Source: a bacterium (GTDB taxonomy: Bacteria > Patescibacteriota > Minisyncoccia > UBA6257 > 2-01-FULL-56-20). From it: a DNA stretch of 64,000 nucleotides. The stretch covers positions 20,220 through 84,219 of the forward strand of contig JAJXZE010000002.1 of NCBI GenBank assembly GCA_021780195.1, in the 5' to 3' direction. Below the pieces are notes generated by a model. It had not been told where the DNA came from. It did no database searches and saw only the letters and a list, made by a program, of their open reading frames with translations. Positions 2,508 through 59,022 of the stretch are shown here, piece by piece. The position numbers and the translations under genes were made by a program. The number at the start of each line of letters is the position of its first letter. Within the stretch, counting starts at the first letter, position 1.

Positions 2508-4208
2508 TTATTTCGCCTGTTCCGCTGGTTCCGGCCAGACGATCTCTCCCGTGGCGCCTTCCACCTCTTCCCAGGTGGTGAGGCCCGTGAGGACCTTGAG
2601 GATCCCGTCTTCCTGCATGGTGACCATCTTCTGCCGCGCGGCCACCTTGCGGAGTGCCACCTCGGACGCCTCCTTCAGAATGGTGGTCTCGAGATCCGGC
2701 CCTCCCTCCAAAAATTCGAAGATGCCTCTGCGTCCTTTATAGCCGATGCCGCTGCACTTTGTACAGCCCACCGCTGTGTACAACGCGTACGAAGCGTATT
2801 TTGTTTTGTCGACCCGCGCGGGAAGCGCGGCAAGGAATTTTTCGATCCTCTCCTTCGTCGCCTCGTCAGGTTCGATTTTTTTCTTGCAGTCGGGGCAGAG
2901 CACGCGCACGAGACGCTGGGCGATCACGAGCGAAAGTGCGGGGCCGATGCTCGTCGTCTTCACGCCGAGGTCGATGAGACGCGGCACCGCGCCCACCGCG
3001 TCGTTCGTGTGGAGCGTGGAAAGCACGAGGTGTCCCGTGAGGGACGCCTGGAGCGCGATGTCCGCCGTGTCGAGATCGCGCACCTCGCCCACGAGGATCA
3101 CGTCCGGGTCCTGCCGCACGATGGCGCGGAGCCCGTTCGCGAAGGTGTAATTCGCCTCGTTGTCCACTTGTGTCTGCTCGATCCCCTCGATGCGGTACTC
3201 GATTGGATCCTCAAGCGTGATGATCTTGAGTCCCGGATCGTTGATGGTCCGGAGGAAGGCGTAGAGGGTCGTCGTCTTGCCGGATCCGGTGGGGCCGGTG
3301 TTCAGGATAAGACCGTTCGGCCGTCCGAGCTGCTTTTTCACGATCGCGAGGTTATCCTCGCGGAGGCCGAGGTCCCCGAGGCTCACGAGCGTGGCCCGCG
3401 GGTCGAGGATCCTCATCACGACCGTTTCGCCGAATTCCGCCGGGATGACCGAGACGCGCATCTCGATCTCGACGTCCGTGAGTCCGACCGTAAAGCGGCC
3501 GTCCTGTGCCTCGTCGCGCACGTTCAGCTTCATCTTCGAAAGGAGCTTGATGCGTGAAACGAATGAGCGGTACAGGACGAGCGGCACATCCGTCACGATA
3601 TCGTGCAAGACGCCGTCGACGCGGAAGCGGAATTTTGCCGTGCGCTCCCCCGCTTCGGCGTGGATGTCCGACGCCCGCACGGCAAACGCGCCCGCAAGGA
3701 TGATCTCGATCACGGTCGTGGGCGACGCCGTCGCGGGATCGAGCGACGCGAACTCTTTTTTAATGCTGTCGAAGCTCGTGAGCCGCCCGCGGAGCTCGGT
3801 CATCCTCGCCTCGGACACTTTCACCTTGCCCGTGATGTCCTCCGCGGCCCGTTTCACGAACTTGTAATATTTCCACGCCGCCTCGAGCCCCGATGCGGAG
3901 GCCACGAAAAGCTTCGGGTCGTATCCTTCCGCCGCGAGCTCCTTCACGAGTTCCTTTGTGGCGCCAAAATCAGGGTTCTCGGCGATAACCGCGATCTTCT
4001 TTCCCTGCAGTTCCACGCCGGCCGCCTTCGCGGCGCGGGCCTTCTCTTCCGGAATCACGCGCACGGCATCCAGAGACACCGGCATCTTTGAAAGGTCGGC
4101 GTACGAAAGCCCTGCCTGCGCCGCAAGGCGCACCGCCGCGCGTTCCTCTCCCTCGCGATGGAGCTTGGCAAGCTTTTCTTTCAGGTCGTTCGGTCCGAGA
4201 TCAGCCAT
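2508..4208 (-). CDS. pilB: Type II/IV secretion (type IV pilus) assembly ATPase, GspE/PilB family
   Basis: Walker A GPTGSGKTTT, a GspE-type N-terminal domain, and the C-terminal tetracysteine CPDC...CTKC. The start is trimmed from 4304 to ATG 4208 (MADLGPNDLKE...). Confidence 0.9.
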   Translation of the reverse strand: MADLGPNDLKEKLAKLHREGEERAAVRLAAQAGLSYADLSKMPVSLDAVRVIPEEKARAAKAAGVELQGKKIAVIAENPDFGATKELVKELAAEGYDPKLFVASASGLEAAWKYYKFVKRAAEDITGKVKVSEARMTELRGRLTSFDSIKKEFASLDPATASPTTVIEIILAGAFAVRASDIHAEAGERTAKFRFRVDGVLHDIVTDVPLVLYRSFVSRIKLLSKMKLNVRDEAQDGRFTVGLTDVEIEMRVSVIPAEFGETVVMRILDPRATLVSLGDLGLREDNLAIVKKQLGRPNGLILNTGPTGSGKTTTLYAFLRTINDPGLKIITLEDPIEYRIEGIEQTQVDNEANYTFANGLRAIVRQDPDVILVGEVRDLDTADIALQASLTGHLVLSTLHTNDAVGAVPRLIDLGVKTTSIGPALSLVIAQRLVRVLCPDCKKKIEPDEATKERIEKFLAALPARVDKTKYASYALYTAVGCTKCSGIGYKGRRGIFEFLEGGPDLETTILKEASEVALRKVAARQKMVTMQEDGILKVLTGLTTWEEVEGATGEIVWPEPAEQAK

Positions 4209-38165: not shown

Positions 38166-38897
38166 ATGATTTTCATGCCCCATTTTTTCGTGAAAAGCTT
38201 TGAGGAGGATCATGCGACGAAGACGCTCGTCGGGACGAAGAAGAAGACCTTTCAAACCCTCGATAATATCCTGATGAAGGGGATTCTGCGCCCGAATACG
38301 AAGAGCTTCGGCCAAAAGCGACGCCTTAGTACGACTGTTTTGAGCGGCCGCTATACGAAGACCTACCGGCCGCAAGGGCTGATTTTCAGGACGAAAGACC
38401 GGCCGGATTACGTGATCCCGTTTGATCTTGTTCTGCTTTCCGATGCGGGGAAAATCGTCGTACATTACTATCGCATCAAAGATAATCTGCACGTCTATTA
38501 CAACCACAAGCTCATCAATGGCTATCAGGGATTCATCTTTAAGAGTATCTCTCTGATGGAAAAGAAATTCGTCTCTCCGGAGGGAGCATGGAAAGCGGTC
38601 AATGCATTCCGCGTTGCACACGGCTATCCAGCGTTGCCTCCGTCGAAGCGCCGCCTCGCCGCCTATAACGAAGTCGTATTCCAGAAGCCGATAAAAGTCG
38701 TTCCCGTGGCGCTCTTCGGCTACCGCGCGGAAACGAGGCGGCTTGCCCGCAAATATGGACTCCGCTATTTCAGATCGGCGGGGGAGTTTTATAAACGGAT
38801 ACGCGGCGGCGCGTCCAAAGGACAGGAGGGGCGTTGTTTTTCTTTCGCTGGAGCGGGCAAGGGGAATCGAACCCCTGTCATCAGCTTGGAAAGCTGA
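38166..38897 (+). CDS. Hypothetical protein in an AT-richer segment
   Basis: ORF-track ORF 38073..38897, with the start uncertain (ATG 38166 used). No recognised domain. The last ~49 nt are antisense to tRNA-Gly, so the true C-terminus is doubtful. Confidence 0.4.
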   Translation: MIFMPHFFVKSFEEDHATKTLVGTKKKTFQTLDNILMKGILRPNTKSFGQKRRLSTTVLSGRYTKTYRPQGLIFRTKDRPDYVIPFDLVLLSDAGKIVVHYYRIKDNLHVYYNHKLINGYQGFIFKSISLMEKKFVSPEGAWKAVNAFRVAHGYPALPPSKRRLAAYNEVVFQKPIKVVPVALFGYRAETRRLARKYGLRYFRSAGEFYKRIRGGASKGQEGRCFSFAGAGKGNRTPVISLES

Positions 38898-38922
38898 GGT
38901 AATGCCATTATACGATGCCCGC
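38849..38922 (-). tRNA. tRNA-Gly (anticodon UCC)
   Basis: The reverse complement is GCGGGCATCGTATAATGGCATTACCTCAGCTTTCCAAGCTGATGACAGGGGTTCGATTCCCCTTGCCCGCTCCA. It folds as a cloverleaf with anticodon loop TTTCCAA, and CCA is encoded. Confidence 0.92.
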
Positions 38923-39679: not shown

Positions 39680-39754
39680 GGGCATGTAGCTCAATGGCAG
39701 AGCAGACGTCTTATACACGTCCGGTTCCAGGTTCGAGTCCTGGCATGCCCACCA
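39680..39754 (+). tRNA. tRNA-Ile with anticodon UAU
   Basis: GGGCATG TA GCTC AATGGCA GAGC A GACGT CTTATAC ACGTC CGGTT CCAGG TTCGAGT CCTGG CATGCCC A CCA. The cloverleaf is perfect and loop positions 34-36 read TAT. Confidence 0.85.
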
Positions 39755-42946: not shown

Positions 42947-43018
42947 GGTGCCTCTAGCTTAATGGTAAAGCTCCGCTCTGTGGCAGCGGCAATACGGGTC
43001 CGATTCCCGTGAGGCACC
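42947..43018 (+). tRNA. tRNA-His (anticodon GUG) with encoded G-1
   Basis: G-1 + GTGCCTC acceptor arm; anticodon stem CCGCT/AGCGG with loop CTGTGGC; T arm ACGGG-TCCGATT-CCCGT; C73 opposite G-1. CCA is not fully encoded. Confidence 0.85.
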
Positions 43019-49353: not shown

Positions 49354-50136
49354 TTACGCGGATCGTGGGGTTGGCTCCTTTATCTGCTCCGCGAGTCCCC
49401 AGAGATACTCGAAGAGATATTTATGCATGGCGTAAATGTGCGGGTCAGCAAGAATGACGCCGATCATTCTTTCCGGCCGCAGAGTGACGTAAGCGATTTT
49501 TCCGTCATAAATATTCATGATGCTTTCGAATGGAGGGGCGTCCACTCGTATGAGGCGGCTCTCGGTCACGGCGAGGTGGTAATCCTTCAGGTACTCCCGC
49601 GTCGCCGGGGTATCAAGAAGGATGCCGCGCCGTTTGACTCCCAGTTTTTCCCTCTTGGCCACATAAGCGTTATTGAGGGGGCCGATATTTTTCATCACCG
49701 CCTCGATATCCGCATATGAACAGATCTCAGTCCGCGATATAAGCGTATCGTCCAGGACCTTTTTAATGCCCTCAAGGCCTTCGTAGAATAGAACACCGGG
49801 TTTTCCGGATGAAAGGTTGAAATCGGAAACCAGCGAGTTCAGAACTCCCTCGAGTGCGACGTGGGCATCGGCGGCCGCACGCGATTTCTGGTCAGCCAGA
49901 TCTCTTAGTTTCAATGGGTGGGCCGGTTCAAATTGAGCCACCGATCCCGCCTTGTCCCGTCGGACGGCCAGGCCCCCTGCTTCAAGTTCCCCGAGGATCT
50001 TGTAGGTAAGGCCGCGCTTTAGTCCTGCGTAGCTACTGATTTTTCCCGCTGGAAGCAAGCCATGCTTTACTAGGATCTCGTAGAGCTTGGCCTGGTCTGG
50101 AGAAAGTCCCGCCCTAGAAAGGGTCTGTTCGTACAT
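49354..50136 (-). CDS. TrmB-family transcriptional regulator
   Basis: N-terminal winged HTH MYEQTLSRAGLSPDQAKLYEILVKHGLLPAGKISSYAGLKRGLTYKILGELEAGGL plus a C-terminal TrmB-like sensor-length domain. Divergent from the operon promoter. Confidence 0.7.
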   Translation of the reverse strand: MYEQTLSRAGLSPDQAKLYEILVKHGLLPAGKISSYAGLKRGLTYKILGELEAGGLAVRRDKAGSVAQFEPAHPLKLRDLADQKSRAAADAHVALEGVLNSLVSDFNLSSGKPGVLFYEGLEGIKKVLDDTLISRTEICSYADIEAVMKNIGPLNNAYVAKREKLGVKRRGILLDTPATREYLKDYHLAVTESRLIRVDAPPFESIMNIYDGKIAYVTLRPERMIGVILADPHIYAMHKYLFEYLWGLAEQIKEPTPRSA

Positions 50137-50220
50137 GGCTTCATTGCAATAATAACATAAAATTAACGCTTTGGAAAGTGTCACGGGGCGTAAAAAGGGC
50201 TTAATCTTTTTTATTTATCG

Positions 50221-50234
50221 TCATAAAATTATGA
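50221..50234. promoter_or_regulatory. Inverted repeat TCATAA-AA-TTATGA in the divergent control region
   Basis: Lies between the TrmB-type gene and the 50317 promoter. It is a possible operator. Confidence 0.3.
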
Positions 50235-50316
50235 CAATTAATGCTATAAAACTCGGCCATTTGTATCATGAAAATACTTATTTCTGCAGAAATTTAGAAA
50301 GATGCGCCACAAGAAC

Positions 50317-50345
50317 TTGACAGTTTTCATTGCATATGGTAATAT
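50317..50345 (+). promoter_or_regulatory. Near-consensus sigma70-type promoter of the novel operon
   Basis: TTGACA (50317-50322), a 17-nt spacer, then TAATAT (50340-50345). Confidence 0.7.
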
Positions 50346-50351
50346 ATCACC

Positions 50352-51084
50352 AGCACGATGACAGAGGGGGTGGTTCCGGAGGGTGCGCGGCTGGCAGGGA
50401 GGGGAATGGATTGAAGGGATCTATTCCTCTCCCCGAGAGCAAGAGGAGAGGCCTAAGGAGATCCGGGGAAGAGATCTTCATCAGCTCTTTGTAAAACGAC
50501 GGTCGCTCGCGGATATCAGTCTCGAGGAGAGAGTTATCTCGCAGGGCGATTCAGTCAAGCATTCGTCGCGGCGCGTGTCATCGCTTCAAAAGAGCGAGAG
50601 CGGTAGCGGGGCCAGGGAGTCGACGACTCTGCCTCCAATGCCGCGCTGATCAAATCGATCCACAGCGCCACCACGTTTCTTTTTGTGAGATACGTTGCCG
50701 GCGAAACGGTCCAACCCGCCGTTTCTCGGCAAAAATCTCCCCGAAAGAGGAGAGTGATATGGTTCCCTTAGTAAGGAGATCGACTGGAGAGCAAGCTCGG
50801 GTCCGGTTGGTCTCCAGAAACCTCCTTACTAACTCGATCGCAATCTGCGAAAACCGAGGAGAGAGCAGATTGTTAGAGGAGAGAGTAAGGAAGTACCTTG
50901 AAAATTGAATAGCCAAAGTAGTGCTTATAGCGATTATACGTTCGCGGATTATTACACGGGAGCGTCCGAGCTATGGCATTTTGACTTTGAAGTTCCTCCC
51001 GAGTTTGGTTGTCAACTGAGGTTCTGATTTTTGGTGCTTCAGTTGGCAATCAAACTCAAATACGAAACGAAAGGAGGGAGTCAA
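50352..51084 (+). ncRNA. ~730-nt structured leader / candidate ncRNA
   Basis: No convincing ORF. Nested helices lie at 50417-50464, 50695-50732 and 50768-50832 (11 + 7 bp). GAGGAGAG occurs five times (50443, 50524, 50747, 50856, 50876). Confidence 0.45.
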
Positions 51085-51555
51085 ATGAACTATTTGTTGG
51101 GGTCGGGTGAGGCGGTCATTGATCGTTTCAACTCGCACGTTCACGACGGAGTGGCGCGGCTCCTACCCGCGGCGCTGCTTCGAGTTCAGTCACAGGGTAG
51201 GAAGTTCCTCATCGAGGAAGTTGACTTTGGTCAACCAGTCGGTGAGACGATCTGCGTTCCAACCGGGCCAGGGGACGAGATCGTATACGCAATTCGGCCC
51301 AAGAGATTCGGGCACTCGCGGTTCGTCAAAAATCGCAAGCCCGAGCCATGTGGTGCGGTGACGATCATTCTCAAAAGGGATGAATTTGATCCGTACTATG
51401 TCCTAATTACGGCCTTCGTAGGCCATAAACCTGAGCCCGAGCCATGGGATCGCAATTCCAATGGTTTGAGTCGGGACTTCTGGAGTTCTCACGCCCTCAT
51501 CTGGGGGTGCGAGGAAGTCATGCACAACACAGTAACCACGGAATGTCCGTGGTAA
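51085..51555 (+). CDS. Operon gene A: hypothetical protein (156 aa)
   Basis: AGGAGGG SD 7 nt upstream of ATG 51085. Sequence MNYLLGSGEAVIDRF...RFGHSRFV...YYVLITAFVGHKPEPEPWD...FWSSHALIW. No family recognised. Confidence 0.7.
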   Translation: MNYLLGSGEAVIDRFNSHVHDGVARLLPAALLRVQSQGRKFLIEEVDFGQPVGETICVPTGPGDEIVYAIRPKRFGHSRFVKNRKPEPCGAVTIILKRDEFDPYYVLITAFVGHKPEPEPWDRNSNGLSRDFWSSHALIWGCEEVMHNTVTTECPW

Positions 51556-51583
51556 CAACAGCAACAGAGAAAGGAGAAACGAA

Positions 51584-51874
51584 ATGAAAATCAAGAGGTT
51601 GTTTTTGGCGCTGTGCGCCAAGAGGTTGGTTGTCGACATCATCACCGCTGACAACAGAGCGTTTCAGTTGAGCGGTGACCGACGGTTCGAGGGGATGTAT
51701 GAGCGGCTATTCCATGCCGACTCTCACCCCACTCGCAGAAACGTTGGAGAAGGTGAGATGCAGTGGGCTTTCGACCAGGCCAGAGAAATCCGGCTTTGGA
51801 TGGGCCCCACGGAGTATCGCACGATCACAACAACTGAGCTCGAATCCGAGCTCACGCCATTCCCGGTTCGATAG
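51584..51874 (+). CDS. Operon gene B: hypothetical protein (96 aa)
   Basis: AAGGAG SD upstream of the ATG. No family recognised. Confidence 0.6.
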   Translation: MKIKRLFLALCAKRLVVDIITADNRAFQLSGDRRFEGMYERLFHADSHPTRRNVGEGEMQWAFDQAREIRLWMGPTEYRTITTTELESELTPFPVR

Positions 51875-51888
51875 AAAAGGAGGAGACG

Positions 51889-52338
51889 ATGAGTCACATC
51901 AGAAAGGAGACCGTGCGTGGATTCGATACCGTCCACCCGGTTGTTCTGCAAGAAGGTATCAAGGTGGCCTGTCAACTTCTCTCGCTTCAGGGCCTGAAGG
52001 TGACTGATCATGTCTTTGATTGGAGTGGCCATAAGGTCACCGAGTACAACGGCATGAATGTTATCTGCGGCTTGGACGCACAGGGGTCGGCCTCGTCCCA
52101 CAAGTTTGCGGGACTGGGGCTCGCAGTCGACCAGAAGGGCAAGCTCGCGATTGTCGGAGATTTTTATTACTCCGAGCAAGAGCAGCGAGCCCAGGAACTC
52201 AAGAAGATGATCGAAACAGTTCTTGGCGGAGCCTGCTACTTTGCGGCACGGGCGATGATCGCCACGGCCAAGGGGCAGCGGACTCAGATCAAGATCAACC
52301 AAGAAACCCGCCAGCTTCAGCTGGTGGTGCAGATGTGA
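51889..52338 (+). CDS. Operon gene C: DUF1257 (Ycf35)-like protein
   Basis: AAGGAGG SD. The MSH... N-terminus, ~149-aa length and ...RQLQLVVQM C-terminus resemble Ycf35/DUF1257 proteins. Recognised from memory, not searched. Confidence 0.6.
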   Translation: MSHIRKETVRGFDTVHPVVLQEGIKVACQLLSLQGLKVTDHVFDWSGHKVTEYNGMNVICGLDAQGSASSHKFAGLGLAVDQKGKLAIVGDFYYSEQEQRAQELKKMIETVLGGACYFAARAMIATAKGQRTQIKINQETRQLQLVVQM

Positions 52339-52357
52339 GATGAGAAAGGAGGACGTC

Positions 52358-52573
52358 ATGGCAAGAGAAGTCATAACGATCGGCGGAGACGGAGGCGTCG
52401 GCTCTGAAATGTTCGGGTTCAAAGGCAAGAGCTGCCTCAAAGCGGCGGCTGAGATTGCCGAAGAGCTCAAGCGGCTCGGAGTGGTTGCCGACATCGGCGG
52501 AATCAGCATGAAAGAGGATGCCGAGGTCGTGACCGAGACGCAGCAAGCGGCAATGAAGGTCGAAAGGGGATGA
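52358..52573 (+). CDS. Operon gene D: DUF2997-like small protein (71 aa)
   Basis: AAGGAGG SD. Sequence MAREVITIGGDGGVGSEMFGFKGKSCLKAAAEIAEELKRLG matches the remembered DUF2997 pattern (I..DG.V...V.G.KG.sC.....l...lG). Confidence 0.6.
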   Translation: MAREVITIGGDGGVGSEMFGFKGKSCLKAAAEIAEELKRLGVVADIGGISMKEDAEVVTETQQAAMKVERG

Positions 52574-53205
52574 AAGTTATGGTTATGCCCCGCGTAAACC
52601 TTCACGACTTCGTCCCCCGGTCTCGTGCAAACGGGCCGGGGGAGCGAGCGGTGGTTTGGGTGCAGGGTTGCCCTCGGCGTTGTCCGGGGTGTTTCAATCC
52701 CGAAACCTTACCATTCGTTACCAAGAATTGGGTAACCGTTGATGATCTTGAGAGCCGAATCTTGGCTCAAAACAACATTGACGGCGTCACCTTTTCTGGT
52801 GGCGAACCGTTCGCACATGCACAGGCACTTGCCGAGTTGGCGAAAAAGCTGCGCAAGTATGGATTGACGGTGGTGTGTTACACCGGCTACACGCTCAAGC
52901 AACTTAAGGCCGGAAATCGCGAGGACTGGAATGCTCTTCTTTCAGAAGTAGACCTTCTGATTGACGGGCCATTCATCCAAGAGCAGCGGTGCCATGAACC
53001 ATATCGCGGCTCGGCAAACCAAATTCTTCACCTTCTTACCGATCGCATCCGATTGGAGGAAGTTCATGGGCAAAGCCAGACAGCAGAGTTCACACTCGGC
53101 GCTGGCGGAGACATCCAGCAAACTGGATTCCCTGAACTCCCCGACATGGATGCGGTCATGGGAGAAATCTCAGGGATCCTCAAACAGACAGGAGGATCGA
53201 AATGA
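52570..53205 (+). CDS. Operon gene E: NrdG/PflA-type radical-SAM activating enzyme (orphan)
   Basis: The CX3CX2C cluster is present in VWVQGCPRRCPGCFNPE, with the SAM-binding GVTFSGGEPF. About 210 aa, as in NrdG. ATGA overlaps with both neighbours. Confidence 0.8.
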   Translation: MKVMVMPRVNLHDFVPRSRANGPGERAVVWVQGCPRRCPGCFNPETLPFVTKNWVTVDDLESRILAQNNIDGVTFSGGEPFAHAQALAELAKKLRKYGLTVVCYTGYTLKQLKAGNREDWNALLSEVDLLIDGPFIQEQRCHEPYRGSANQILHLLTDRIRLEEVHGQSQTAEFTLGAGGDIQQTGFPELPDMDAVMGEISGILKQTGGSK

Positions 53206-55010
53206 AAGATACGAAGAATTGTGCCGTAACGGCACACAGTTGGTTTGAGTCTTTTGCTCGTGCCTACGCGGCCGAGCTCGGGTACGTGTTTCTTATCTCC
53301 GGCAACATCGCAGATTTATTCCCCTTGGGGAGCGAGTTCGTGACCTTGCGCCAGTTCTGGGCAAGGCAGTTGGATGGCAGAGACATTGTGGTGTTCTGGG
53401 ATAAGTCGGCGGGGTTCGCCTTTGCTGACGAAATCCTCGGCACCAAACCGGCCGAAGGGCAACTCCCGATGAGGGAGAAGTTCAAGGCCGCAGTCGGACT
53501 GAATCAGCAGCAAGGTAATGGCGGCAGCAATGCCTCTAACTTGCTGGCTGGCTTGGCTGGATTGGGCGGCGGCAACAACGGCGCGCTTCCCACTGATCCT
53601 GAGCAAGCTTTCCAGCTTCTGGAAAAATTGCTCTCACAGGGCAAGCCAGAAGATCGGAAGGCGGCGGTAGTCGTGGAGTACATCGAAAGTGTTATCCCCG
53701 AAAACGACTACGGGTCAGTTCCGGCAGTAACGCTCCAACGGTGGGCGTCTCTGGACAGCCCGCTCAAGGGTACCGGCAACCCGGTTATCCTGATCGAGCG
53801 GAATCCAGAACGGGCCTCTAGTGTAGTGAAGCATGACGATTCGTCGGTAGTGCGGATCCACATTCCTCGTCCGAACAAAGAGGAGTTCGGAACATTCATC
53901 CGTCACAGCCTGAAGGTCAACGGCGTTAAGCTCGCCGAAGGCCTGACGGTGGACGTGGCGGCCAACCTGTCAGCCGGGCTACGTTGCAAGGACTTTGACG
54001 ACTTTGTCATGAAGTCGCTCGAGTCCGGCGACCCAATCAACGACACCTTTATTTGGCAGAAAAAGGTGGAGTTGATTGAGAAGCAGTCCGGCGGGGTCCT
54101 GCAGGTGGTAAGACCCAAGCATGGGTTCGAATCCATCGGCGGGCTGGAGCACGTCAAGAGCGCCCTACGGGTGCAGATTGACAAGCTTCGCAGTGGTTCC
54201 AGAACCACTGATAAGGGTTGGATTCTGATGGGGCCTCCGGGAACGGGGAAAACCATCATCGCCGAGGCGCTGGCGAAAGAGTCGGGTGTCAATTTCGTGA
54301 TGCTCGGCAACGTCCTCTCCAAGTATGTGGGTGACTCGGAGAGAAACATGAATCTCGCTATGGAAATTGCCCGAGCCATGGCGCCCACAATCATCTTCGT
54401 TGACGAAGCCGCTGAGGCAATCGGAAACGGAGAGGGCTACAACGGGGATAGCGGCGTCAGCAATCGTGTAAGGGGGAAACTCCAGAACGTGATGGGTGAC
54501 GACTCTGCCCGGGGCCAGCTGTTCTTTATGCTGGCAACGAACTATCCCAATCGTCTGGCACCGGCGATTCTGCGTGAGGGAAGGATGGACAAGCGGGTGC
54601 CACTCTTGGTTCCTGACAGCACCGGGAGAAATGAGATTCTCAAAGCGCTTTGCCTAAAGTATGGCATTGCGTCCGAGGGAATCGACTTTTCACCTGCCCT
54701 TGCCAGTACGGAAGGGTGGACAGGTGCTGAGCTCGAGGCGCTTTTACTCCGAGCGAAGCAATTTGCAGAGGAGGAGGAAGTGCCGGTCGAGACCCGTCAT
54801 TTCGATGAAGCGGTAAAGGATTACATCCCGAGCCGCGACCAGCAGGCGTTCGACCTGATGACCGCGTTGGCCATCAGGTACACGAACTCCAGACGGCTTC
54901 TGCCCGAGGCCTATCGGTCTGCGAATGGAGAAATTCAGAAGCGGATCGATGAGCTCGAGCCTCAGGTGGCCGAGCGCGAAGCAAGGCGCCGGGGCGGGCT
55001 GAAGCTCTAG
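53202..55010 (+). CDS. Operon gene F: Ycf46/CDC48-type AAA+ ATPase (602 aa) ending RRGGLKL
   Basis: Walker A GPPGTGKT, Walker B IIFVDEA, DSGVSNRV (Ycf46-like), and a large non-ATPase N-domain. The C-terminal tail is ...IQKRIDELEPQVAEREARRRGGLKL. Confidence 0.85.
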   Translation: MKDTKNCAVTAHSWFESFARAYAAELGYVFLISGNIADLFPLGSEFVTLRQFWARQLDGRDIVVFWDKSAGFAFADEILGTKPAEGQLPMREKFKAAVGLNQQQGNGGSNASNLLAGLAGLGGGNNGALPTDPEQAFQLLEKLLSQGKPEDRKAAVVVEYIESVIPENDYGSVPAVTLQRWASLDSPLKGTGNPVILIERNPERASSVVKHDDSSVVRIHIPRPNKEEFGTFIRHSLKVNGVKLAEGLTVDVAANLSAGLRCKDFDDFVMKSLESGDPINDTFIWQKKVELIEKQSGGVLQVVRPKHGFESIGGLEHVKSALRVQIDKLRSGSRTTDKGWILMGPPGTGKTIIAEALAKESGVNFVMLGNVLSKYVGDSERNMNLAMEIARAMAPTIIFVDEAAEAIGNGEGYNGDSGVSNRVRGKLQNVMGDDSARGQLFFMLATNYPNRLAPAILREGRMDKRVPLLVPDSTGRNEILKALCLKYGIASEGIDFSPALASTEGWTGAELEALLLRAKQFAEEEEVPVETRHFDEAVKDYIPSRDQQAFDLMTALAIRYTNSRRLLPEAYRSANGEIQKRIDELEPQVAEREARRRGGLKL

Positions 55011-55060
55011 TCCGAAACACCAACACAGAAACGAAAAGAATGGAGGTGATTCCAATGTAG

Positions 55061-55758
55061 TTCTTATGGCGAGAGCCACGGAGAACCCGAATCTTTCCGC
55101 GGGATGGAGTGTGCGGGGAAGATCGGAGGCGGTCTTCGGTAGGGCTGCTTCTTAAAACATGACCCGGCGATGCATCAGGCCGAAGTCTGATGTAGGTTCC
55201 AGCGGCAGATGTTTGTCGGCTATCAGGGATATCCGGCAGACAGTTGGAACAAAGGGGTTTGTACATTTGCGGGTTCATTGGTGTGCGAGCTTCTCTCCCT
55301 GAAATGGAGAAACGAACCAAAAGCGAAGTTAACCTTCAACCGGCGGTTGGCAATCATCCGTCGAGCGTTAACCCCAAGTGGAATTAGCGGTGCTTAATAA
55401 AGGCCACAGGCCTAATGAGCCGCTAAATCCAGCAAGGTCGCAGAGTTCCCTTCGGGGGATAAATAAATTGCATAAGCCGAGAAATCGGAATGCGGATCGC
55501 GCTTGACTTAAAGCGCGAGAAGCGAGTGGCCAGTCAATCGGCCGTCCGATTTGTCCAGTTGCGAGCAACATTGCAGTTGGACTAGGCGAAGATTGAACGC
55601 GCTCATCCGCGAAACTTCAAATTCGGCCTAGGGTTCGATGAGGGGTTCTATAAAATTCTTGACTTTGGCCAAGTCTTGGCGGCACTTGCTTTGCCGTAAC
55701 CTCGGGCTAATCGCAAGTTAGCTCGAGGAAAGCAAGAAGGGTTTAGGGTTTACAGTCC
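55061..55758 (+). ncRNA. Candidate large structured RNA inside the operon
   Basis: About 800 nt without a credible ORF. Stable helices include 55385-55425 (nested), a C(UUCG)G hairpin at 55445-55460, a GAAA-tetraloop hairpin at 55477-55488, an 8-bp helix at 55497-55518 and a three-tier helix at 55685-55736. Confidence 0.5.
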
Positions 55759-55824
55759 GGGCGAGTTGACGCACTCAACTCGCCCCTTCTTCCGAACTCA
55801 TCATCATGGTGATGATGAGTTCGG
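55759..55824 (+). promoter_or_regulatory. Two tandem perfect hairpins preceding gene G
   Basis: GGGCGAGTTGA-CGCAC-TCAACTCGCCC (55759-55785, followed by CTTCTTCC) and CCGAACTCATCATCA-TGG-TGATGATGAGTTCGG (55792-55824). They may act as an attenuator, terminator or processing site. Confidence 0.45.
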
Positions 55825-55868
55825 AGAGAGGGTTCATTGACAACCAAATACGAAAGGAGGAAAGCAGA

Positions 55869-56621
55869 ATGGACAAGGTCCAAATCTACCCGCAAGGGCT
55901 CGGAGAGTACGAGCGGACACTTGGTCTGCGCTGGTCGGTATCATATTACTTGATGCCAGAAGCGCATACGTGCCAAGTGGTCTGCGACGGTCGCGAGCGA
56001 AAGTGTGAGATTTGGATCAACGGTACCACGTACCGAAATCCAGAACTCATGTTCGCTGATGTGATTCATGAGCTCTGCCATTGTAGTTTGGCAGAACGAA
56101 TCGATCCGGCTTTCTCGACGGTTTTCTTTTCCAACAAATGGAATGAAATCAGTCGAGAAGATGAGGCTCGGTTCGGTCAGCTTGCTCGCATGCTCTACTA
56201 CGCGTGGAGTCATGTAGACATTTGGGTGAACGATCTTCGTTTCGCCCACTGGCCAGAGCTCACAAACGAGGATCACAATACTTTTGCACAAGGGATGGTA
56301 GCAATCGTCCAAGCGCAGGAGTGGCGTGTTCTGCAGTCACCCGAAACAGTTCTTGGTCTGGCTCAATACCAGGCTGAGAGGAATCGGCATCATGTCAATA
56401 CGCCTGATCTGTTTGCAGCTTTAGAGGCAAACGGAGTGGGCGTGGATGACCAAATCCGAAAATTGGCTATCTACTTTGAGTCTTTGCCTCGATTGAAGTT
56501 CAATCAGAGAAAGGACTTGAAGGCACTCGAGCGGTCAGTTCAGGACGCAGCGAAGATGCTGAACTTTCCTATCACCCCCCGGCTTGTCTGGGAGGAACGA
56601 TGGGTATGGAGTCTCGACTGA
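55869..56621 (+). CDS. Operon gene G: HExxH-motif protein, putative zinc metallopeptidase
   Basis: Start moved to ATG 55869, after AGGAGG; the ORF-track start 55806 lies inside the hairpin. A single HELCH motif in ELMFADVIHELCHCSLAE. No other family signature recognised. Confidence 0.55.
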   Translation: MDKVQIYPQGLGEYERTLGLRWSVSYYLMPEAHTCQVVCDGRERKCEIWINGTTYRNPELMFADVIHELCHCSLAERIDPAFSTVFFSNKWNEISREDEARFGQLARMLYYAWSHVDIWVNDLRFAHWPELTNEDHNTFAQGMVAIVQAQEWRVLQSPETVLGLAQYQAERNRHHVNTPDLFAALEANGVGVDDQIRKLAIYFESLPRLKFNQRKDLKALERSVQDAAKMLNFPITPRLVWEERWVWSLD

Positions 56622-56658
56622 GACCCAAAGCAAAAAGCAAAAGGAAAGGAGAAATAAA

Positions 56659-57000
56659 ATGAGAAACGGCAATTTCCTGTATCAGCTGAGTTTGCAGGAG
56701 GCTTTCATTGTTCACCGCGGCGTAAGCCAAGGCGGCAAGAAGCTGAATGCAGATCAGCGGAGGATTTTCTGGCAGAGAAATAGCCAGAAGGTCAGCGGTG
56801 TCGAGATTGGTGCCGGCAAGGTGCTGGTCTCACTGGTTGGGCTCAGAGTTCTTCGCGAGAAGAATCTCGTGATCGTTTCCAACCCCGGGAAACCGAGGAT
56901 ATGGACGATCAAGCGGATCATGGAATCCGCTGAGAGGAATCAAGTTATTCCAGAACTGACGCAGGGATCGTCTCAGCGTCGAGGTGGACTGAAGCTGTAG
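56659..57000 (+). CDS. Operon gene H: 113-aa protein ending RRGGLKL
   Basis: Start at ATG 56659, after AAGGAG. The tail ...TIKRIMESAERNQVIPELTQGSSQRRGGLKL shares KRI...RRGGLKL with the AAA+ ATPase. Confidence 0.65.
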   Translation: MRNGNFLYQLSLQEAFIVHRGVSQGGKKLNADQRRIFWQRNSQKVSGVEIGAGKVLVSLVGLRVLREKNLVIVSNPGKPRIWTIKRIMESAERNQVIPELTQGSSQRRGGLKL

Positions 57001-57055
57001 CAATTCCAAACCTGTTTGCCTCAGGCAAACGCAACTGAAATGAAAGGAGATCGAA

Positions 57056-58366
57056 ATGAAAGGGATCTATTACAGCAGACATTGCGGTTATGATAACCGC
57101 GATCAGAACAAGGACGACTGGCGTCAGCCGGTCGAAGGTGAATCCATCATTCTCAATCGATCTGCGTTCTCCAAGTTCTTCCCCGAGGTCGTAATCCAAG
57201 GGGAAATCAAGTGGAGATGCAAGGATCACAGCGATGAGCGGTGCGAGGGCTGCAACGGTTGCGACCAGAGTGTGAAAATCACTTTTGGCCGCGAAGGGGG
57301 GCAGTTCACCGTCAGTCGCACGGACGAGGGCAAGACCCACAACATCGACCAGTTCGGCTGGGGATGGAGTGGGAACGGGGCCAACGAGCACTGGTTCGAT
57401 GATGAGGCGATCTGCCTCAAGTTGGTCAGTGACTATCGATCAAACACAGGCCTTACGGCCGACTCCACAAGGATCGTCTCTTACAAGCGACACGTGGAGG
57501 TTGATTCTTTCCGCGGCGATTGCAAAGATGAAACACGAACATTGCCCAAGGGAGGTAAGATTTGGGCGGAGTTCGTCAATCATCCGGCGCAGTACCGCGC
57601 AAACTGGACGGGCTTCGGGATCGGGACATTGGATTCTGACGCTACGCCAATCATTGGCGACGCATTGGACAACCTGATCGAGACAATGCTTTCCGGCAAC
57701 ATCGGCAAGGAGACGGTGTGCAGACACAACAGTAACGTACGAGCGCACATCGTGACCGCCGATCCCAACAAGGTCTCCCTCTACCTCTGCAAATCCTGTC
57801 GGATGCGCGGAGTGCGGTGGGAAGAGTTCATGACCAGGAATCGCGCGGATACGTGTCCTTATTTCCGCCGCGCTTGCAAGAGCGTAGTGGAGAAATCGGA
57901 CTCGTTCCCCGAGTGGTTCAGCTGGAACGGCGACAATCTGCTTTCTTCTACCCTTCGGCTGAAAGACGGCGAGTACAATGCGTACGAAGTCGTCTATGTT
58001 CGAAGGAAGGAAGGATTCATTCGCCGGTCGGTGCTTCTTCTAAACGATCGCACTCGTGAAGTGTGGATGTTCCGCTACAACGGATTCATCCCGCGCACGA
58101 TGGCGGAGTTCAAAACCAAGTACGCCGAAGGTCGTCAGATTAGCGGCTACATGGGCACCGGTCCGACAGACCGCAGCTACAACAGCGAAAATCCCAATGA
58201 CAGATTCCTGTCAGAGGCGAAGATCGCGGAGGCGATTGCACAGGGTTTGAGCAACCCAGTGTGGAGAAACGGAACCTCCTTGCTCATCTCCATCGATTTG
58301 GGTCGCAACGATCTTCACGATTTCGCGATCCAGAAAGGGGAGATCAACGGCTACCAGATTGCGTAA
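57056..58366 (+). CDS. Operon gene I: 436-aa Cys-rich protein, unknown family
   Basis: AAGGAG SD. Cys clusters C55-x7-C-x2-C-x2-C (CKDHSDERCEGCNGC) and C-x2-C...C-x6-C (LCKSCRMRG...CPYFRRAC). The stop TAA is followed by a 65-codon in-frame open extension. Confidence 0.7.
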   Translation: MKGIYYSRHCGYDNRDQNKDDWRQPVEGESIILNRSAFSKFFPEVVIQGEIKWRCKDHSDERCEGCNGCDQSVKITFGREGGQFTVSRTDEGKTHNIDQFGWGWSGNGANEHWFDDEAICLKLVSDYRSNTGLTADSTRIVSYKRHVEVDSFRGDCKDETRTLPKGGKIWAEFVNHPAQYRANWTGFGIGTLDSDATPIIGDALDNLIETMLSGNIGKETVCRHNSNVRAHIVTADPNKVSLYLCKSCRMRGVRWEEFMTRNRADTCPYFRRACKSVVEKSDSFPEWFSWNGDNLLSSTLRLKDGEYNAYEVVYVRRKEGFIRRSVLLLNDRTREVWMFRYNGFIPRTMAEFKTKYAEGRQISGYMGTGPTDRSYNSENPNDRFLSEAKIAEAIAQGLSNPVWRNGTSLLISIDLGRNDLHDFAIQKGEINGYQIA

Positions 58367-58683
58367 CTTGACCACGAAGGCAAGGAGTGCGAGCTGGAGG
58401 CCAAGCCAACCCCCGCTCCGTTCTACACGGACGCGGGTGCCAGTTACCATCTGATTTACGGTGATTGGGCGCAGCATACGGTTCTCCGCCATCACGGCGA
58501 GGAGCTGTATCGCTCGGATCGGAGCAATTACAAGTGGTTCATGCTCCGAGTCGCAAAGCAGTAGAACCACGCCACCTCGTCCACCCGAGGTACGAATTCA
58601 AAGTGAGTCAGGGGAGTGGATAATGGCTCAAAGGGTTAAAAGGTTTACAATCAAGGGAGCAAGTAATGCACTTGCTTGCTCCC

Positions 58684-58736
58684 TCTCTTTCTCGGATGTG
58701 TATCCGAGCTGATGAGTCCGAAAGGACGAAAAGAGA
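58684..58736 (+). ncRNA. Type III hammerhead ribozyme
   Basis: Reading 5' to 3': TCTCTT (stem III 5' strand), U17, predicted cleavage between 58690 and 58691, then stem I CTCGGAT-GTGT-ATCCGAG. These are followed by the core CUGAUGA, stem II GUCC-GAAA-GGAC, the core GAA, and AAGAGA (stem III 3' strand). All conserved core nucleotides are present. Confidence 0.8.
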
Positions 58737-58996
58737 CAGAACATTAAAAAAGTGATATAATATAAATGGCCATCAAGAGGCCGATGCGTCAGCTTAACGG
58801 AATCGGATCGGGGCAGCAGTGTGAGATCGTCCCCGCTCTGTGTAAATAGAGAAGGGACAAAAATCTCTCTCCTCTAAAACACCGTTCCTCGGTCTGTATA
58901 ATTTCAGGTAAGCTGGCGCGCGGCCTCGTGATGGACATCAGCCCGTCACGAGGAGAGGATGAAAGGCGCAACTTTTCATCCTTTAATATACAAAGT

Positions 58997-59022
58997 CCGC
59001 CTTCTTAAGGCGGCCCTTTTTT
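58997..59022 (+). terminator. Rho-independent terminator
   Basis: CCGCCTT-CTT-AAGGCGG followed by CCCTTTTTT. Confidence 0.7.

Follow-up and report, generated by a model that had tools for sequence, protein, structure and literature searches.

Evidence for a conserved structured RNA embedded in an AAA+ ATPase operon of Patescibacteriota

The gap between genes F and G

The DNA analysed here, called the window, is a stretch of 64 kb (64,000 nucleotides) of contig JAJXZE010000002.1 of assembly GCA_021780195.1, from a bacterium of the Patescibacteriota, and positions given below without the name of another locus are positions in it. On its + strand lies an operon in which two protein-coding genes, F and G, are separated by a gap of 858 nt (55011-55868), and this gap almost certainly holds a real, conserved structured RNA of ~0.8 kb that extends on the same strand from ~55042 to ~55843. 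Gene F (53202-55010, + strand) encodes a predicted classical AAA+ ATPase of 602 aa, with a CDC48/PAN/FtsH-like ATPase domain, an N-domain of its own and the C-terminal sequence RRRGGLKL; the protein matches Pfam AAA (3.5e-27) and, below the cutoffs, a CDC48/PAN-like family of NCBIfam. Gene G (55869-56621, + strand), which is the downstream neighbour here and not in every operon, encodes a putative zincin metallopeptidase of 250 aa with an invariant HExxH motif. Its start at ATG 55869 is supported by homologs, by the gene call on an identical contig and by the Shine-Dalgarno (SD) sequence, and was preferred to the ATG at 55806, which lies inside one of the hairpins described below (terminal hairpin 2) and with which a mechanical list of open reading frames (ORFs) begins the gene (55806-56621, 271 aa).

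An earlier note on this DNA, made from the letters and the ORF list, had proposed a large functional structured non-coding RNA (ncRNA) in the gap, and synteny, selection and covariation now support a conserved structured non-coding RNA there. The note had seen no credible ORF in 55011-55868, and this holds on comparison: in all of 5 homologs, each of the six frames of the conserved part carries 5-20 stop codons, and the length of most indels is not divisible by three (15-21 such indels relative to the window in three of four homologs), one of the indels falling within the most conserved block (GGAATTAGCGG versus GGAA-TAGCGG). The accompanying remark that no ORF there has an SD sequence has to be qualified, however, in that a strong SD-like GGAGGTG is found at 55042-55048, followed after a 6-nt spacer by an immediate start-stop, ATG-TAG (55055-55060). 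No intact ORF is present in the gap in any of eight operons compared; the short ORFs that are occasionally called there (68 aa in L065, 78 aa in L063 and 54 aa in L007, the related loci being numbered with the prefix L) differ in strand and are not kept among homologs.

The conserved body of the element, 55163-55835 (0.67 kb), is 87, 75, 78 and 78% identical to its counterparts in L004, L002, L013 and L065, respectively; over the first ~150 nt, even close homologs show poor conservation. At the four-fold degenerate sites of gene F, the window is 64, 45 and 51% identical to L004, L002 and L065, so that the gap evolves far more slowly than neutral sites. A core of 107 nt (55340-55446) reaches a mean column identity of 93% over 5 sequences. 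Unpaired columns are nearly as conserved as paired ones, which suggests that they are engaged in tertiary or protein contacts. On these comparisons, we regard the region as non-coding and under strong purifying selection.

The arrangement is shared by related operons. In the eight for which gene F and the sequence downstream of it are available, an ORF-free gap of 0.8-2 kb is kept directly after F without exception (858 nt in the window, 954 nt in L004, 2115 nt in L002, ~1000 nt in L013, 976 nt in L065, 1364 nt in L007, 2016 nt in L063/L064 and 821 nt in L061/L062), and F is never directly followed by G. Homologs of the RNA are recognisable in seven of the eight regardless of what comes next; in these and in the further locus L008, this is gene G in the window and L004, a 112-aa gene in L008 and after the second of the two copies in L002 (L002b), a 113-aa gene, without any G, in L013 and L065, a 117-aa gene in L007, and a second copy of the RNA after the first copies in L002 (L002a) and L063 (D1). 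Gene F stands immediately upstream of the RNA wherever the contig reaches that far. A tie between the RNA and gene G was considered and rejected, since G is missing from L013 and L065, which have the RNA, and L005 and L009-L011 contain G but lack the RNA. The element thus goes with F and with the operon, of which we take it to be an integral, syntenic part.

Covariation provides the most direct argument for a structure. Consensus folding with RNAalifold of 3, 4 and 5 sequences of type A, the type found in the window, rendered 216, 190 and 189 pairs, with 25, 30 and 34 compensatory double changes, respectively. In the 4-sequence alignment, 97.6% of cells are standard pairs and 30 pairs have changed on both sides, versus 13.3±2.5 in column shuffles, none of 500 of which reached 30, and 1-4 in slid controls in which the 3' partners were moved by 1-3 columns. 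Comparison across related operons thus lends strong covariation support to ~26 helices. G·U cells number 119 and A·C cells 20, and the structure is therefore to be ascribed to the + strand RNA. In L003, for instance, one compensatory change and four G·U changes leave all 15 pairs of hairpin 2 intact; on the opposite strand, the G·U changes would be C·A mismatches.

The RNA unit of the window can be followed along the + strand from the SD-like motif and start-stop mentioned above. Alignments and sequence comparison define a 5' variable domain (55061-55162), M0-like and with a GAAUCUUUCC...GGGGAAGAUC helix, which is shorter than in L004, L013 and L065, where a conserved 5' extension begins right after the F stop codon; its homology to the M0 module of other types was judged by eye only. 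Modules M1-M2 (55163-55258), supported by a covariance model (R1, see below) and by covariation, comprise a 7-bp hairpin with the loop GGCCGAAGU (M1, 55172-55193) and a long two-tier hairpin (M2, 55196-55250). The two hairpins that follow (55260-55287 and 55289-55313), obtained with RNAalifold from 5 type-A sequences with 2 compensatory pairs each, are the weakest part of the fold, with several mismatches in L013/L065. The ultraconserved core, M3 (55340-55446), is made up of a hairpin (55341-55363) and a multi-tier stem (55365-55446) capped by AGGCC-ACA-GGCCU, and it contains the nested helix that the earlier note had drawn at 55385-55425, whose apical stem GGCC/GGCC is replaced in a compensatory manner by GGUCC/GGACC or GGAUU/AAUCC in types C and D.

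Every helix listed in the earlier note exists in the sequence, although comparison does not favour them equally. The short stem capped by cUUCGg (55447-55459) is present in the window and in L004, but it is a dispensable, variable peripheral element, deleted in L002 and replaced by a longer stem, of ~45 nt, in L013/L065. The CCGA-GAAA-UCGG hairpin can be drawn for the window and finds no comparative support, its 5' arm being CCAA in L013/L065; the consensus fold instead pairs AAUCGGA (55483-55489) with UCCGAUU (55545-55551). This is the closing helix of the central domain (55483-55649, RNAalifold consensus), invariant and hence uninformative for covariation, which encloses hairpins 55491-55524 and 55527-55544; the helix earlier placed at 55497-55518 is found as GCGCUU/AAGCGC (55499-55516), with 2 compensatory pairs. 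On the 3' side of the closing helix there are a 12-bp hairpin (55553-55582, 5 compensatory pairs), a helix at 55584-55629 (with 55598-55611) and a hairpin at 55630-55649. In the short hairpin CGACUU/AAGUCG (55658-55678), 4 of 6 pairs are compensatory among type A.

Module M4 (55677-55738) is formed by a three-tier helix (tier 1, 55686-55691/55730-55735; tiers 2-3, 55700-55728, with an invariant CGCAA loop), which had been drawn at 55685-55736, correctly except for the outermost pair at each end; 12 of its 20 pairs show compensatory change across 10 sequences of types A, B, C and D, and none of 500 shuffles was as high. Another helix, H23, pairs GCGGCA (55679-55684) with UGCCGU (55692-55697), with compensatory changes in type B, and the 7-nt loop of the hairpin so formed is the 5' strand of tier 1. 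A pseudoknot model that combines H23 and tier 1 leaves 95.3% of cells paired and both helices supported, so that the two could form either an H-type pseudoknot or two alternative conformers. Close to the 3' end lie terminal hairpin 1 (55759-55785, 11 bp), a C/U-rich, anti-SD-like tract (55783-55793) complementary to GGAGG, and terminal hairpin 2 (55792-55824, 15 bp, extended by 55787-55791/55825-55830, CUUCU/AGAGAG). That these are two hairpins of 11 and 15 bp had been recognised before, and it is borne out by their conservation (55759-55834) in L003, L004, L002, L013 and L065, and partly in L006, through G·U and compensatory changes that are valid only on the + strand. The junction to gene G (55835-55871) consists of the conserved CATTGACAA (55835-55843), the SD sequence AAAGGAGG (55853-55860, with its core GGAGG at 55856-55860) and the ATG (55869-55871).

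Diverged subtypes and tandem copies

An alignment of all subtypes together with MAFFT was unusable, and an iterative alignment with covariance models was used instead; the models, R1 (M1-M2), R2 (core M3) and R3 (M4), were built from type A only. The same motifs were found in the same order in the gaps of L007, L063 and L008 and in the second half of the L002 gap, namely a hairpin with a GCGAAG loop and a GAUCUC...GAGAUC helix (M0), a hairpin with the loop G(C/G)CGAAG (M1), a long hairpin capped by GGCUUGGAAUCC or GGCUAU..GGGAUAUCC (M2), the core GCUUAAUAAAGGNC...GNCCUAAUGAGCC (M3), ...UAAUCGCAAGUUAG... (M4), and the terminal hairpins. With E-values that are to be read as rough, R1 matched L002b (6e-9), L008 (3e-7), both copies in L063 (D2, 3e-7; D1, 1e-5) and, weakly, L007 (0.03), and it matched none of 17 unrelated loci. 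R2 matched L007 (4e-5), L063 D2 (7e-4), L063 D1 (1.5e-3) and L002b (0.02), in each case 172-177 nt downstream of the start of the R1 match (247 nt in L007), as in type A, and R3 matched L002b (3e-8), L008 (1e-7), L007 (3e-5) and L063 D1 (8e-3). Within the 64-kb window, each of the three models matches once. Collinear R1-R3 matches are found in the window/L001, L004, L002 (two copies), L013, L065, L007 and L063 (two copies).

In a 9-sequence alignment of M1-M2 from types A, B and D, 99.1% of cells pair and 23 of the 25 pairs have changed on both sides, versus 13.6±2.0 in shuffles (0 of 500 as high as 23) and 3-6 in slid controls. The copies agree in the order and spacing of their modules and in compensatory change, which is hard to account for other than by homology. 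The family, whose members measure ~0.5-1.1 kb overall, can be divided into at least four subtypes, A (~0.7-0.95 kb), B (~0.4-0.5 kb), C (~1.1 kb) and D (~0.8-1.0 kb), and tandem paralogs occur as A+B in L002 and as D1+D2 in L063. The latter locus, from a metagenome-assembled genome (MAG) of Patescibacteria, carries the two full-length copies (L063 2990-3790 and 3840-4860), which fill a 2-kb gap after F, each beginning with AAAAAGGAGG and ending with a GGGAGCUCUG...UCUCCC hairpin. In some operons, the shorter type B paralog and the 112-aa gene (MTDWLIRNQREDELKTRFYLEF...) are inserted between the type-A RNA and gene G (RNA and gene at 2560-3075 and 3136-3474 in L002, and at 190-590 and 646-984 in L008); the 112-aa gene has no family match.

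Known families do not account for the RNA. All 4227 models of Rfam 15 were scanned, and at gathering scores only tRNAs were found in the window and nine related loci; at E <= 10 in 54900-56000 and E <= 1 in L064, the scans gave only noise, with miRNA-type matches on the perfect hairpin and a chance-level match to c-di-GMP-II (E 8.3, 54900-56000). The families that the earlier note had named for such a scan were absent from it at either level, as were others: there was no match to OLE, GOLLD, ROOL, HEARO or raiA, to Intron_gpI, Intron_gpII or a group-II domain, or to hammerhead, twister, pistol, hatchet or HDV-like ribozymes. The lack of an Rfam match fits a new family, rather than refuting an RNA. 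The description of the element as rRNA-like is apt as to style only, no similarity to rRNA having been detected. A blastn search found no match in 50,697 phage or 72,556 plasmid records, and in IMG/VR neither the DNA pattern nor gene F was found, one AAA+ protein of 30% identity apart; as the window is, moreover, chromosomal (it encodes DnaA, FtsH, PBP1, UvrD and a PilB-like ATPase), a viral origin was rejected. A scan of metagenomes with the DNA pattern gave two matches only, one a duplicate of L008 and the other L013. No description of the RNA or of the operon was found in full-text literature searches.

Transcription and operon context

A consensus scan of 50000-59000 rendered a single σ70-like promoter match upstream of the operon (50317-50345, + strand; TTGACA-17-TAATAT, TG-extended) and a single good terminator-like site on the + strand, a hairpin at 58654-58684 followed by a C/U-rich tail and not by a U-tract; both calls are consensus matches only. 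Within 55011-55868 the scan gave no + strand promoter or terminator. The terminal hairpins (55759-55834) have no U-tract and were not called as a terminator, and CATTGACAA, which resembles a -35 box, was set aside as such, having no -10 partner at promoter distance. A separate transcript with its own promoter and terminator was rejected as well, no consistent sites being found in the window, L063, L007 and L065. Since the RNA is without a promoter or terminator of its own, we infer that it is co-transcribed with the operon as part of a polycistronic message.

The ends of the units are marked by conserved signals. An SD-like AGGAGG(UG) motif stands at the start of every RNA unit (L004, L002, L013, L065, L007, L063 and L061), and no start codon or ORF after it is conserved among the units; at the other end, every unit closes with a hairpin with a C/U-rich 3' arm and a tail complementary to GGAGG. 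In types A and B, the conserved CATTGACAA comes next and then the SD of the following gene. A module like the 3' end of the RNA, with AGGGUUUA, a hairpin and a CCCUU(C/U)UUCCGA tail, recurs after gene H, the last gene of the operon described below (L002, 6718-6797; L008, 2280-2437). Between the promoter match and the first gene of the window operon there is a leader of 736 nt (50346-51081; folding z = -6.75), the 3' part of which shares ~70% identity with L065; this leader, which R1-R3 do not match, is possibly another structured RNA element.

The operon itself consists of genes for small proteins, among them one with a weak DUF2997 match, followed by an NrdG-like radical-SAM protein, the AAA+ ATPase F, the RNA and variable distal genes, which in the window are the metallopeptidase G, a 113-aa protein and the Cys-rich H. 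The genes upstream of F have no family assignment apart from the weak DUF2997 match and an NrdG/PflA-like radical-SAM 'activase' that stays below the family cutoffs; family scans of the operon proteins as a whole gave AAA, Fer4_12/radical SAM, weak DUF2997 or no match, and these matches revealed no RNA-binding protein. PADLOC matches were limited to a generic IetA-like AAA protein and a weak viperin-like radical-SAM protein. The family of gene F comprises ~50 clusters at >=50% identity, and those with source names come mostly from MAGs of Patescibacteria, Parcubacteria, Paceibacterota or Magasanikbacteria, the taxon labels being those of the MAG bins. The family of gene G is rare, with 12 clusters among 5.8 billion proteins.

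Several further observations concern the neighbouring genes. The C-terminus RRGGLKL is common to the ATPase F (54987-55010) and the unrelated 113-aa protein (56977-57000), and it is kept across both families, RRGG being nearly invariant; this suggests a shared docking or processing tail, perhaps one for ubiquitin-like exposure of GG or an HbYX-like docking motif. Gene G, with its zincin-type HExxH motif, adjoins the genes with the RRGGLKL tail. Gene H has 436 aa in the window and 494-613 aa in its homologs, and the stretch just 3' of its stop codon (58367-58557) matches, at 90% identity, sequence that in L004 still codes for the C-terminal end of the 514-aa homolog; as the homologs are longer and coding-like sequence continues past the stop, H may be truncated in the window genome. 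Three genes for tRNAs lie 12-16 kb upstream of the operon (38852-38922, - strand; 39680-39751 and 42948-43018, + strand), and two tRNAs are found just downstream of it in L063; no link between them and the RNA was established.

Possible roles of the RNA and comparison with known systems

Taken as a whole, the data are explained best, in our opinion and with modest confidence, by a new family of operon-embedded structured ncRNA that acts as an RNA in its own right. Among the large, ornate ncRNAs of bacteria, a category already known, its sequence and predicted structure set it apart as a new family, no described one being matched. A role in trans, or as a component of a ribonucleoprotein (RNP), rather than in cis is a narrower claim, to which we would give slightly less than an even chance. 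The RNA would be made as part of the polycistronic transcript, and would most likely be stable, and possibly processed, assembling with operon-encoded proteins for which it would serve as an RNP scaffold or cofactor; such an arrangement would be like that of OLE RNA, an operon-embedded RNA with the Oap proteins as its partners. Closure of the RNA described here, or contact with the ribosome, may be brought about by its conserved SD-like 5' end and its anti-SD-like 3' tract. A role of this kind is favoured by the size and complexity of the element, 0.5-1.1 kb being far larger than is usual for cis-regulatory RNA classes, by the near-invariant core and the conservation of unpaired nucleotides about as high as that of paired ones, by the fact that the first copy of the tandem pairs (A+B in L002, D1+D2 in L063) has no ORF directly downstream, and by a linkage that is to F and not to any one downstream gene. 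More tentatively still, the RNA may be the core of a new RNP machine of Patescibacteria-like bacteria, together with the CDC48/PAN-like AAA+ unfoldase, the NrdG-like radical-SAM activase and the zincin peptidase. The peptidase might then act on proteins with the shared RRGGLKL tail, and the RNA might be a scaffold or an allosteric or catalytic cofactor or, alternatively, a ribosome-engaging RNA by virtue of its SD-like 5' end and anti-SD-like 3' tract. If this were true, the element would be more than another regulatory leader, and would stand for a new functional class among the large RNAs of bacteria.

A number of results weigh against an independent RNA of this kind or limit the comparison from which it is drawn. 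The minimum free energy (MFE) of the + strand of the 858-nt gap is -340 kcal/mol, versus -282±5.7 in dinucleotide shuffles (z = -10.3; z = -4.8 for the - strand), but coding controls of 858 nt from the same operon are also strongly negative (53600-54457, z = -6.9; 57300-58157, z = -4.6), so that either the whole mRNA is unusually structured or z-scores of long sequences from 20 shuffles are inflated. The MFE z-score was accordingly rejected as decisive proof of structure, and the verdict therefore rests on conservation and covariation. The comparative set for these is small, with 5 full type-A sequences (two of them 96.5% identical, hence effectively four independent ones) and 5 diverged copies, and alignments fitted by covariance models lean toward the modelled structure. 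One operon, L061 (Parcubacteria, GCA_007376705.1; F 66% identical), has a structured gap that none of R1-R3 matches; this ORF-free gap of 821 nt after F (L061 11720-12540) has an SD-like start and z = -7.5, and the F of that operon has no RRGGLKL tail and is followed by different distal genes. Homologs of gene G also stand apart from the RNA, beside ribosomal-protein genes in L005 and behind other genes in L009-L011. Finally, types A and B end 25-60 nt before the SD/ATG of the next gene and have near their 3' end a C/U-rich tract with complementarity to GGAGG, as would be expected of an expression platform, and the lack of consistent promoters and terminators around the RNA fits a cis-acting element equally well.

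These last points belong to the most serious rival, a giant intercistronic leader that would sense a ligand, a protein or a condition and control translation of, or read-through into, the distal genes, to which we assign a distinctly smaller, though real, probability. In such a leader, the C/U tract (55783-55793) would pair alternatively with GGAGAGAGG (55823-55832) or with the SD of the next gene (55853-55860), and the choice between H23 and tier 1 in M4 could also serve as a switch. A leader would account for an RNA that lies on the same strand without its own promoter or terminator, for the position of types A and B just upstream of SD/ATG with the conserved CATTGACAA junction, for the anti-SD-like tract kept at the 3' end of every unit, and for two adjacent M4 helices that are both supported and could be alternative conformers; it would also uncouple the expression of F from that of the distal genes. 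Riboswitches and T-boxes measure ~300 nt or less, however, and 0.5-1.1 kb, ~26 helices and a near-invariant core of 107 nt lie far beyond what is usual in cis-regulators. Nor is there a constant downstream gene to be regulated (G, a 112-aa gene, a 113/117-aa gene or another copy of the RNA follows), the first copy of the tandem arrays precedes no ORF, the + strand scan shows no intrinsic terminator at the position of an expression platform, and homologs of G function elsewhere without the RNA.

The remaining rivals fare considerably worse. A self-processing RNA, that is, a new ribozyme or an element akin to introns by which the polycistronic transcript would be cleaved, so that the F and distal mRNAs are separated or the RNA itself is excised, is improbable; many large, highly conserved bacterial RNAs with assigned functions are ribozymes, the ultraconserved core is rich in unpaired nucleotides and comes with a pseudoknot candidate, and processing would be useful in the transcript in which the element is embedded, but no Rfam ribozyme or group I/II intron matches even at E <= 10, no intron-encoded protein, reverse transcriptase or homing-endonuclease ORF is present, the element lies between the complete ORFs F and G and interrupts neither, and it bears no sign of mobility, being found only at this position of the operon, with one match per model in the window. 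We think it more improbable yet that the hairpins are a generic spacer, terminator-like or REP-like, that protects or punctuates the operon mRNA. The terminal hairpins do resemble the terminator-like hairpin at 58654-58684 with its C/U-rich tail, L002 and L008 have a related 3' module again behind gene H, and coding parts of the operon are unusually foldable too; a spacer would nevertheless need neither a 93%-identical core, nor the conserved loops GGCCGAAG, CGCAA and GGCUUGGAAUCC, nor a pseudoknot and collinear modules at fixed spacing across subtypes, and the elements recur nowhere else in the window. As for a decayed gene between F and G, which the earlier note had offered as its alternative, it is effectively refuted and its probability negligible: the SD-like GGAGGTG with an ATG at the 5' end and the short ORFs called in the L065, L063 and L007 gaps might suggest it, yet no operon of the eight has an intact ORF, stop codons are frequent in every frame and indels mostly non-triplet, identity far above that of four-fold sites is the opposite of decay, and helices are maintained by compensatory substitutions.

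Bacterial RNAs that are both large (>500 nt) and intricately folded make up only few known classes, and closer study has shown several of them to be ribozymes, RNA guides or unusual RNA/RNP assemblies. The element described here would add to them a new large RNA that is strongly supported by comparison and has a candidate pseudoknot and a core of 107 nt that hardly varies, in organisms labelled CPR/Patescibacteria, on which there is little experimental work. It sits, moreover, in a conserved and wholly uncharacterised operon for an AAA+ unfoldase, a glycyl-radical-activase-like radical-SAM protein, a metallopeptidase and proteins with the RRGGLKL tail. It would be a mistake to annotate long 'non-coding gaps' in operons of this kind as pseudogenes, and the covariance models R1-R3 provide a means to find further members of the family.

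Among described RNAs, OLE RNA (RF01071) of Bacillota is the closest in kind. It belongs to a similar size class (~600 nt versus ~670-800 nt here), has many helices interspersed with highly conserved unpaired nucleotides, lies on the same strand inside a protein-coding operon beside possible partner genes, and its function could not be deduced from its sequence either. On the other hand, the OLE covariance model gave no match to the window or the 9 loci at gathering scores and none at E <= 10 in 54900-56000, and the RNA described here is found under CPR/Patescibacteria labels rather than in Bacillota. Its neighbours are an AAA+ ATPase, a radical-SAM protein and a zincin peptidase, none of which resembles OapA/B/C by name or family. 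It differs further from OLE, whose abundance, processing and binding of proteins are known, in having tandem paralogous copies and subtypes of widely differing length.

GOLLD, ROOL, raiA and HEARO are likewise large and ornate, were found by comparative genomics with strong covariation and had no assigned function initially, but their covariance models do not match this RNA. GOLLD and ROOL are often associated with phages or tRNAs and assemble into multimers made of RNA only, and HEARO serves IscB nucleases as their guide RNA. In the present case neither a nuclease gene nor a prophage context is seen (the neighbourhood is a chromosomal one, with DnaA and FtsH), and the position after the AAA+ gene is strict. 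With riboswitches, T-boxes and ribosomal-protein leaders the RNA shares its strand, its position directly upstream of an SD and ATG, a C/U tract that could sequester the SD and a possible two-state choice of helices in M4, and tandem arrangements are known for some riboswitches; it differs from those classes in being two to five times larger, in having neither a constant downstream gene nor an expression platform of the terminator type, and in the lack of any Rfam cis-regulatory match at E <= 10 save the chance-level one to c-di-GMP-II (E 8.3). Type III toxin-antitoxin systems of the ToxI kind also have an RNA upstream of protein genes in the same transcript and, in some loci, tandem copies, but the ToxI-like units are direct repeats of ~36 nt, while the units described here, of 500-1100 nt and with a complex fold, contain no tandem short repeats and are accompanied by no identified gene for a ToxN-like endoribonuclease.

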